Part shown: one piece after another, positions 14,126 through 17,807 of the stretch
Layout: every line of letters starts with the position of its first letter
Position numbering within the stretch: the first letter of the stretch is position 1
Assembly (NCBI RefSeq): GCF_004010195.1
Contig: NC_057719.1
Span: forward strand, 43,079,927 to 43,099,926
Source: Chiloscyllium plagiosum
Lineage: Eukaryota
Length of the DNA: 20,000 nt
Direction: 5' to 3'
Position numbers and translations under genes: made by a program
The notes under the pieces: model-generated
Databases searched by the model: none
Seen by the model: only the letters and a program-made list of their open reading frames with translations
What the model was told of the DNA's origin: nothing

Positions 14126-14314
14126 GTTAGCATGGAGAATTATTGTTTGCCACAGTTTTATTGAATTCAAAGAAAAGTGCAATGACTAAATATGTTCCAT
14201 TTTCCTGTGGAAAGTAGGTCCATTTGTCTGAATATATGTAGTTTCTCACTAATACAAGTGAGCCACACTGCAAGGCCTTCGAGCACTCTGAAGGTAGAGG
14301 GTGAACAGTCACCT

Positions 14315-14403
14315 TCTGGATTAGTGGTGCTGGAAGAGCACAGCAGTTCAGGCAGCATCCGAGGAGCAATAAAATTGACATTTCGGGCAAAAGCCCTTCA
14401 TCA
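14315..14403 (-). mobile_element. 89-bp hammerhead-bearing Penelope-derived mini-insertion with 15-bp TSD
   Basis: GGTGAACAGTCACCT at 14300-14314 and 14404-14418; minus strand reads CTGATGA-A-GGGC-TTTT-GCCC-GAAA-TGTC; closely similar to 16994-17087. Confidence 0.9.
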
Positions 14404-14489
14404 GGTGAACAGTCACCTGACAAGCCAACGCATTTATCCTTTGGCTAGCAAAACAGAAAAAAAAGACAATCATTTATTCATGCAAATAT

Positions 14490-16305: not shown

Positions 16306-16957
16306 GTGTTGGCCTACTGCATCCAACACAGTACAATCAAATTAGTGCTTTTTTTGAAGTCATAGAATTCTTCAAGCACAAAAAGAGGCCTATTGCTCAT
16401 CATGTCCATGTCAGACATCAAACGTTCATTCAACATTCTTACACCTAGCCCATAGTTTTGCATGTCATGGTGTTTCGAATGCTCATCTAAAAAGTTCATA
16501 AATGTCTTGAGGGTTCCTACCTCTACCACCCTTTCAGGCAGTGTGGTCTAGATACCCAAAATCCTTGAAGTGAAAGGATTATTCCTCCTTAATTGTAAAC
16601 CTTCTGCTGCTTACCCTTAATATCCACTGTTTATTGACCCTTAAACAGAGAGAGATTTCTCCTTTCTACCCTGCCTATTCCCCTCAGAACATTGTATACC
16701 TCCAATAGATGTCCCCCTCAACCTCCTCTACTCGAAAGCAGGGGTTGTTATCCTATCTAGTCTACCTTCACAACTGAATTGCTCCAGCTCAGTCAACATC
16801 CTGGTGAATCTCTTCTGCACCCTCTTTAGTGCATTGTATCCTTCCTATACTGTGGTAACAAGAACTGCACACAGTACTCCAGCTGTAGTTTAACATTACA
16901 GCTCCATCATAACCTCCCTGCTCTTGTATTCAGTGCCTTGACTAATAAAAGCAAGTA

Positions 16958-17094
16958 GGTAAAAATAATGACTGCAGATGCTGGAAACCAGATTCTGGAG
17001 TAGAGTGGTGCTGGAAAAGCACAGCAGTTCAGGCAACCTCCGAGGAGCACGAAATTCCGACGTTTCGGGCAAAAGCCCTTCATCAGGAATACAG
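16958..17094 (-). mobile_element. 137-bp hammerhead-bearing Penelope-derived mini-insertion with 7-bp TSD
   Basis: GCAAGTA at 16951-16957 and 17095-17101; removing the insert and one TSD restores continuous CR1 sequence. Confidence 0.9.
17054..17090 (-). ncRNA. Minimal type I hammerhead ribozyme motif, catalytic core intact
   Basis: ATTC-CTGATGA-A-GGGC-TTTT-GCCC-GAAA-CG-TC^GGAAT: core boxes, 4-bp stem II, palindromic ACGT stem III, GUC cleavage triplet. Confidence 0.8.
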
Positions 17095-17234
17095 GCAAGT
17101 ATCCCAAATGCCACTTTAACCACCTTATCTACCGAACTGCTTCCTTCAAGATTTGGAGGTACCTGTGTTGGACTGAGGTGGACATAGTTAAAAATCACAA
17201 CACCAGGATATAGTCCAACAGGTTTATTTGGAAG

Positions 17235-17270
17235 CACTAGCTTTTGAAGCGCTGCTTCTTCATCAGGTGG
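17235..17270 (-). ncRNA. Hammerhead motif of the Penelope terminal repeat (G12 mutated to A)
   Basis: CAC-CTGATGA-A-GAAGC-AGC-GCTTC-AAAA-GC-TA^GTG: stems I and II pair, palindromic AGCT stem III. Confidence 0.75.
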
Positions 17271-17807
17271 TTGTGGAGCAGAATCATAAGACACAGACTT
17301 TACAGGAACAGGATTGCAGTGTCATGGAATATAATATTGAACAAATTTAGCTGAAGTCGTTCATCGTTCAGAATGACCATGTTAGTTTCGGTTCCTTCAT
17401 ATGTGAATCCCAGAACTTTTTTAAAGTTACATTCTCAAGATAGCTTTTAACAATAGGTGTCTTCTCAGCTCAGATAATGCATTGAAGGTGTGAAGTTAAA
17501 GTCTGTCTATGTCCCAATGTTAGGTCAGACTGATTCTATTTCTAAAGTGGGATTTCAAATTTTACATGGATTTATGCAGTTTTTGCACAAAATAAAATGT
17601 AATTCTGCAAATACAAATTCGCCCCACAAACTTGTGTGTGCAGAGGAGACTGAGTGAGTGTGTTCATGTGGGGGTGTGAGTGTCTGTGAGAGAGTGTGTG
17701 TCTGTGTGAGTGTAATGAGATATAAGTCTGTGAGAGGGTGTGGGTGAGTGTGGGGGTGAGCATATGAGAGCTTATGTATCAGAGAGAGTCTGTGAGAGTG
17801 TGTGGGT

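Follow-up and report, generated by a model that had tools for sequence, protein, structure and literature searches.

Minimal hammerhead ribozymes (HHRs) have been described in the pseudo-LTRs of metazoan Penelope-like elements (PLEs), and thousands of solo motifs in vertebrates come from truncated PLEs (PMC4209133; this and the other sources are cited for those parts of them that were available). Most such motifs are single genome-wide and 'probably related to truncated PLEs', the elements named in fish being Xena, Poseidon and Neptune (PMC4209133). DKG, CX4CxxC and CxxC motifs are given for canonical PLEs, the linker for Neptune and Nematis, and an optional tail of 30-40 bp is described at one end (PMC8557442). 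In the anole element this tail is the stretch between two start sites of the reverse transcriptase (RT), and uncut RNA is the main substrate (PMC11167929). Single minimal HHRs of S. mansoni showed no cleavage (PMC4209133), and of nine Xenopus dimers one was cleaved (bioRxiv 10.64898/2026.07.22.740005). The in vivo role of PLE hammerheads is given as an open question (PMC4209133; PMC11167929).

The window, i.e. the whole 20,000-nucleotide stretch of DNA analysed here, carries a 137-bp insert on its minus strand which is very probably the 5'-truncated pseudo-LTR end, with a 36-nt tail, of an abundant Penelope-like retrotransposon of Neptune type. The endonuclease and reverse transcriptase of this element probably inserted it into an older LINE. 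The features of the locus are collected in Table 1. Re-reading of the coordinates confirmed the insert and its flanking GCAAGTA words as originally predicted. Fourteen other copies of the host repeat could be read across the insertion site and none of them contains the insert, while those intact at the site have one GCAAGTA-like word followed by a match to the right flank, which demonstrates that the duplication is real. The host repeat is present on both sides of the insert. A genome search with the host repeat gave 3,744 candidates, the best other copies being ~80% identical. We take it to be the ORF2 end of a CR1-type LINE, an assignment made from the translated motifs LEYCVQF and AFISQGTEYKS and not from a library match. 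At both junctions the element shares 2-3 nt of microhomology with the flank, and the ends of the insert are therefore uncertain by 2-3 nt.

Table 1. Features of the locus, in positions of the window
Feature	Position	Strand	Basis
Target-site duplication, left copy GCAAGTA	16951..16957	.	Direct reading and empty host sites
Target-site duplication, right copy GCAAGTA	17095..17101	.	Direct reading and empty host sites
Last ~101 nt of pseudo-LTR plus tail, Neptune-type PLE (very probable)	16958..17094	-	Identity to element ends
PLE tail, ~36 nt	16958..16993	-	Inverted arms and tail-less sibling; optional 3' extension, by analogy with the available part of PMC11167929
Minimal type I hammerhead (HHR) motif	17055..17090	-	Core bases, descriptor, fold
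Older host repeat	16780..16950, resumes 17102 to ~17150	-	Genome search, empty sites, translations
Sibling copy, same PLE family, 90 bp	14315..14404	-	Begins at core C3, no tail

To identify the parent element we used the insert as a genome query, which returned 4,057 candidates. In 25 of the 29 best other matches a shared pyrimidine-rich UTR continues 5' of the insert sequence, and all 29 end 3' in TTTTTACC or a close variant. Walking upstream through overlapping copies leads into a GIY-YIG domain, then into an RT and then to the ORF start. With 92-95% identity, the insert matches the 3' end of the RT/GIY-YIG copies as well as the stretch that precedes the ORF: it lies downstream on the same strand in 16 of 19 copies selected for GIY-YIG, and directly upstream in 11 of 24 ORF-start copies, with the ATG 38 nt past its end. 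Because the same sequence stands on either side of the ORF, the repeat is a pseudo-LTR.

One copy with both domains scores E 1e-6 for RVT_1 and E 2e-4 for GIY-YIG, both slightly below the Pfam cut-offs, and the DKG motif (ADKGGAVVV), the CX4CxxC linker (CHRRNCKTC) and the CxxC within GIY-YIG can be read directly in it. Judged from its sequence, the parent is an EN+ PLE of Neptune type, placed by domain order and motifs and not by a tree. Its ORF measures ~3.2 kb by coordinates and was pieced together from overlapping broken copies; an intact full-length copy was not seen among the copies examined, and a PDB sequence search with the RT piece gave no match. The insert sequence thus ends an RT/GIY-YIG element and stands here as a solo copy with a target duplication, so that the Penelope origin through RT/GIY-YIG put forward originally is the most likely one.

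The family is large, with 20,943 genome matches to an exact 26-base pattern of the 3' end. For a sample of 5' ends we took the first 100 of these matches, which lie on one contig within 8.2 Mb and are otherwise unselected, and determined their ends by anchored extension, numbering from core C3 = 0 and treating copies with an unreadable upstream side as censored (copy L245 was entered as censored at -59). The 5' ends range from +98 to -541. An inverted element piece adjoins 35 of the 100 copies, and 13 have a duplication right at their ends by a test that misses duplications beyond inverted arms; the target duplications of solo copies are 7-17 bp long. The inverted pseudo-LTR arms (31/33 mappable) place the tail, since 20 of 31 stop 30-39 nt before the ACC 3' end. 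The tail-less sibling copy in the window has a perfect 14-bp duplication (14301-14314 and 14405-14418). Three copies (L009, L018 and L019) have 380-500 bp of upstream flank in common that is unlike the element UTR, probably because the locus was duplicated or the copy is carried within another repeat. Older relatives of the family are dense, with ~100 BLAST pieces in 575 kb (60 genome tiles, L146-L205); they differ in the loop of stem II, have CUGAAGA in the core and pair better in stem I (AUUC/GAAU).

On the minus strand the insert begins, in order, with 8 nt, CUGAUGA, A, GGGC-UUUU-GCCC, GAAA-CG-UC and GGAAU. The stem I arm AUUC occupies 17090-17087 and CUGAUGA 17086-17080, with one unpaired A next; stem II is at 17078-17067, and GAAA-CG-UC, which includes the ACGU palindrome, at 17066-17059. 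Each element of a complete minimal hammerhead core was thus found as predicted, with C17 at 17059 and the predicted cut between 17059 and 17058. A descriptor for minimal HHRs detects the motif in the window and gave 42 matches in genome tiles placed at even distances and totalling 575 kb, compared to 0-2 in each of ten shuffles, so that the motif is not a product of chance. Palindromic ACGU or AGCU is present in 33 of the 42, and position 7 varies among them as it does in hammerheads (A 21, U 18, G 2, C 1). An Rfam scan showed no hammerhead match at E<=5; since the motif is without stem III this null result is expected, and it is uninformative for minimal motifs.

All core motifs are exact in at least 15 of 40 family copies. 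Stem I is weak in the family as a whole, 30 of the 40 having GAUU behind the cut site (AUUC/GAUU). The window copy has a private U-to-A change in the 3' stem I arm at 17055 and an extra G that is common to 4 of 14 relatives. With four private changes within 137 nt it is a drifting copy. Three stem I pairs are possible in the catalytic register, and the energy model, which is blind to core contacts, favours the register in which C3 is paired. The caveat raised originally, that AUUCC/GGAAU pairing could hide C3 and weaken activity, agrees with this predicted fold, in which the modelled probability of C3 being paired is 0.97 for the window copy and 0.36 for a majority-type copy. The HHR of the insert is most likely a passenger; having no stem III, and a stem I that the model puts out of register, it is predicted to cleave poorly on its own or not at all.

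The 5' ends of the family are unevenly distributed. Expressed per 100 nt at risk, the end rate is 0.29 at +102..+66, 0.91 at +65..+29 and 0.83 at +28..+7, reaches 3.27 at +6..-9 (22 of 51 copies at risk), and is 0.62 at -10..-60 and then 0.40 and 0.36 further upstream. The comparison of this hotspot with its neighbouring bins yields p ~2e-6, the bin having been chosen on the same data. In a second sample, chosen by its match to the last 63 bases and viewed by eye beforehand, 9 of 23 ends fall in the hotspot (3.0 per 100 nt). The window copy, left out of the rates of this second sample, starts at -8, inside the hotspot, and 10 of 31 inverted arms end at -10..+6. An apparent gap of 5' ends at +29..+65 (0/29 in a smaller set) was discarded, as the larger sample has 26 of 89 at risk ending there.

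The position of the hotspot at the upstream edge of the hammerhead hints at an RNA 5' end and not at cleavage, and we give about even odds to the explanation that fits it best, namely that the element RNA begins there. The same truncation could also generate the hotspot if the RT stalls or folds back at the HHR or UTR start, or if microhomology favours joins at this place, an account that contests only the cause of the hotspot and to which we give rather less than an even chance. Consistent with stalling or joining, 29 of the 51 copies run far beyond the hotspot, full-length-type copies often reach upstream of it, and at many hotspot ends the junction is an inversion with a short self-complementary stretch. 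However, as the RT meets the stems from their 3' side, stalling should occur at +8..+35, a region with a lower end rate (0.83-0.91 per 100 nt). Furthermore, four of six composite copies have an ORF fragment fused to the pseudo-LTR at -9..-6, which is what a jump off the end of a template would produce.

These composites (L122, L124, L128, L129, L133 and L137; ~1240-2030) consist of a pseudo-LTR, the first 360-480 nt of the ORF and a second pseudo-LTR; those with both HHRs have them in direct orientation, ~570-620 bp apart. The composites resemble products of template jumping and are candidates for natural dimers. A non-autonomous family of internally deleted copies was considered for them and rejected, as the six have six different ORF breakpoints.

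Splicing at the HHR was considered as well, since the intron of D. virilis Penelope ends at its HHR. Most long copies, for example L144 at 1255-1270, have a pyrimidine tract that resembles a 3' splice site and ends in CAG 17 nt before the HHR core. Only two of the 100 copies end at the CAG site and their upstream sequences differ; no spliced copies were found among the 100, and we rejected this explanation.

The cut site itself might also leave a record, if the HHR cleaves in vivo and the cut RNAs template copies that start at the cut. This would apply to other copies and not to that of the window, and we regard it as improbable. Junction patterns number 249 at the cut site compared to 68 and 76 at two neighbouring positions, and four of the 100 sampled copies have unmasked ends at the cut, as cleaved templates would predict. 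On inspection, however, 21 of 30, 14 of 15 and 9 of 15 junctions were true, which reduces the counts to ~174, 63 and 46, and other single positions hold 3-4 ends too. The cut-site count is inflated by the purine-purine filter and by GA microhomology with the purine-rich inverted arm that many of these junctions abut. In the anole, moreover, no reads started or stopped at the cut, and mutation of the HHR did not abolish insertion, according to the available part of PMC11167929. Single-cell poly(A) data from a related organism gave 1,974 reads on both strands from one run and 0 from a second; 96% of those reads run into unlike sequence, with no pile-up of starts or ends, so that they are unsuited to show either an RNA start or cleavage.

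The stand-alone, retrozyme-like family that was proposed originally did not hold up, since the 5' ends are spread, the short copies form no clade and the sequence is the end of an autonomous element. A spread of 5' ends along Penelope had been named as the sign of ordinary truncation, and it is largely what we find: the ends extend from +98 to -541, yet unevenly, and plain random truncation is therefore an incomplete account. Given the hotspot, HHR-headed solo copies are a frequent class among the products of the autonomous element. When 31 short and 37 long copies are placed in one tree, the two kinds interleave, with 21 label changes compared to a shuffled mean of 22.5-22.9, although a young lineage of short copies could hide in a tree built on 122 columns with 3 starred branches. 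The 100 consecutive matches in 8.2 Mb contain no unit-length head-to-tail arrays, and the window insert is a single copy whose nearest sibling is 2.55 kb away.

These data make it very unlikely that solo units of HHR plus tail are a discrete mini-element, akin to a retrozyme or SINE, that is transcribed by itself and mobilised anew when the PLE protein acts on it in trans. The recurrence of the hotspot (22/51, 9/23 and 10/31 inverted arms) and the 7-17 bp duplications of solo copies would suit such an element, as would the derivation of animal retrozymes from PLE pseudo-LTRs (bioRxiv 10.64898/2026.07.22.740005) and the promoter within the pseudo-LTR of D. virilis Penelope (PMC2377424), both as given in the available parts of these sources. 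Against it, the ends are ragged across 16 nt and 78 of the 100 lie outside the hotspot, the short copies lack a clade (at the low resolution of the tree), and in place of arrays there are only six same-strand pairs, 276-921 bp apart. In addition, a cut-to-cut monomer would start at the cut and end with the 5' half of the HHR, and the window copy has the reverse order.

Our preferred reading of the insert as a truncated PLE end suggests the following mechanism. The GIY-YIG endonuclease would nick a target in the older LINE, and the RT would prime inside the element RNA, at the tail. Synthesis would stop 8-11 nt upstream of the HHR core and the product would be joined through short microhomology, at a point, the upstream edge of the HHR, where the element RNA may begin. 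If the RNA starts at the hotspot, an RT primed at the upstream pseudo-LTR would therefore run off after ~135 nt. The template of the window copy was uncut at the HHR, because the 5' half of the motif was copied. Most likely the window insert is a dead-end copy. We further propose, tentatively and at less than even chances, that HHR-headed solo copies may be a programmed product: an RNA start just upstream of the HHR and run-off after 90-140 nt would yield thousands of ribozyme-headed mini-insertions, whose >20,000 genomic junctions would record the transcript start and possibly in vivo cleavage.

A second, unrelated repeat end piece lies 150 bp from the insert on the same (minus) strand, at 17150-17400, with its own minimal hammerhead at 17235-17270. 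This motif has CUGAUGA, a stem II of GGAGC/GCUCC type and an AGCU palindrome, while G12 is changed to A here; the intact motif occurs eight times in the 575 kb of tiles. The repeat is likely to be another Penelope family.

As one of >20,000 PLE end pieces, the single locus is of little weight. The many young junctions in the genome would allow the stops of reverse transcription to be mapped base by base. An RNA start at the HHR edge, if true, would explain the commonness of solo minimal hammerheads in vertebrate genomes and would offer a route from PLEs to retrozymes. The cut-site excess, should it reflect cleavage, would be in vivo evidence that the cited papers, in their available parts, do not give. 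In the literature outside Repbase and most subscription journals we found no account of the insert's family or of a 5'-end hotspot at the HHR edge, and the available part of PMC4209133 contains neither a cartilaginous-fish family nor such a hotspot. Retrozyme families from one species of cartilaginous fish are given in the supplements of a preprint and may be relevant to the insert (bioRxiv 10.64898/2026.07.22.740005, available in part).

Compared to the systems described, and as far as the available parts of these sources go, the motif resembles the HHRs of Cervera and De la Pena (2014, PMC4209133) in the absence of stem III, the palindromic 15.1-16.1 bases, the single base between 9 and 10.1 and the G10.1-C11.1 pair, and differs in its 4-bp stem II and weak stem I. 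The parent shares with EN+ PLEs of the Neptune and Nematis groups (Craig et al. 2021, PMC8557442) an RT followed by a C-terminal GIY-YIG, the DKG motif and a CX2-5CxxC linker, and its insertions show the same strong 5' truncation, partial tandems, adjacent inverted copies and 30-40 bp tail; no structural difference from PLEs of either group is apparent. As in Poseidon of Anolis carolinensis (PAc; Frangieh et al. 2024, PMC11167929), the tail is probably set by two internal RT starts, with an HHR nearby and an uncut template. In PAc, however, the RT starts are inside the ORF, whose start codon overlaps with the HHR, whereas here HHR and tail are wholly upstream, with the ATG 38 nt after the tail. 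With non-LTR retrozymes (PMC7229834; bioRxiv 10.64898/2026.07.22.740005) the insert has in common that it is non-coding, has a type I HHR, and is kin to PLE pseudo-LTRs, and dispersed monomers of retrozymes also occur. Those retrozymes are characterised by tandem repeats with an HHR per unit and by linear and circular monomer RNAs, in contrast to the single copy found here, which is colinear with a PLE end and not part of an array. Thus, the insert is of a known kind, the end of a truncated EN+ PLE that carries a minimal hammerhead and lacks the retrozyme features tested (tandem units and a lineage of its own), and the hotspot of 5' ends is the sole part of interest beyond that kind.
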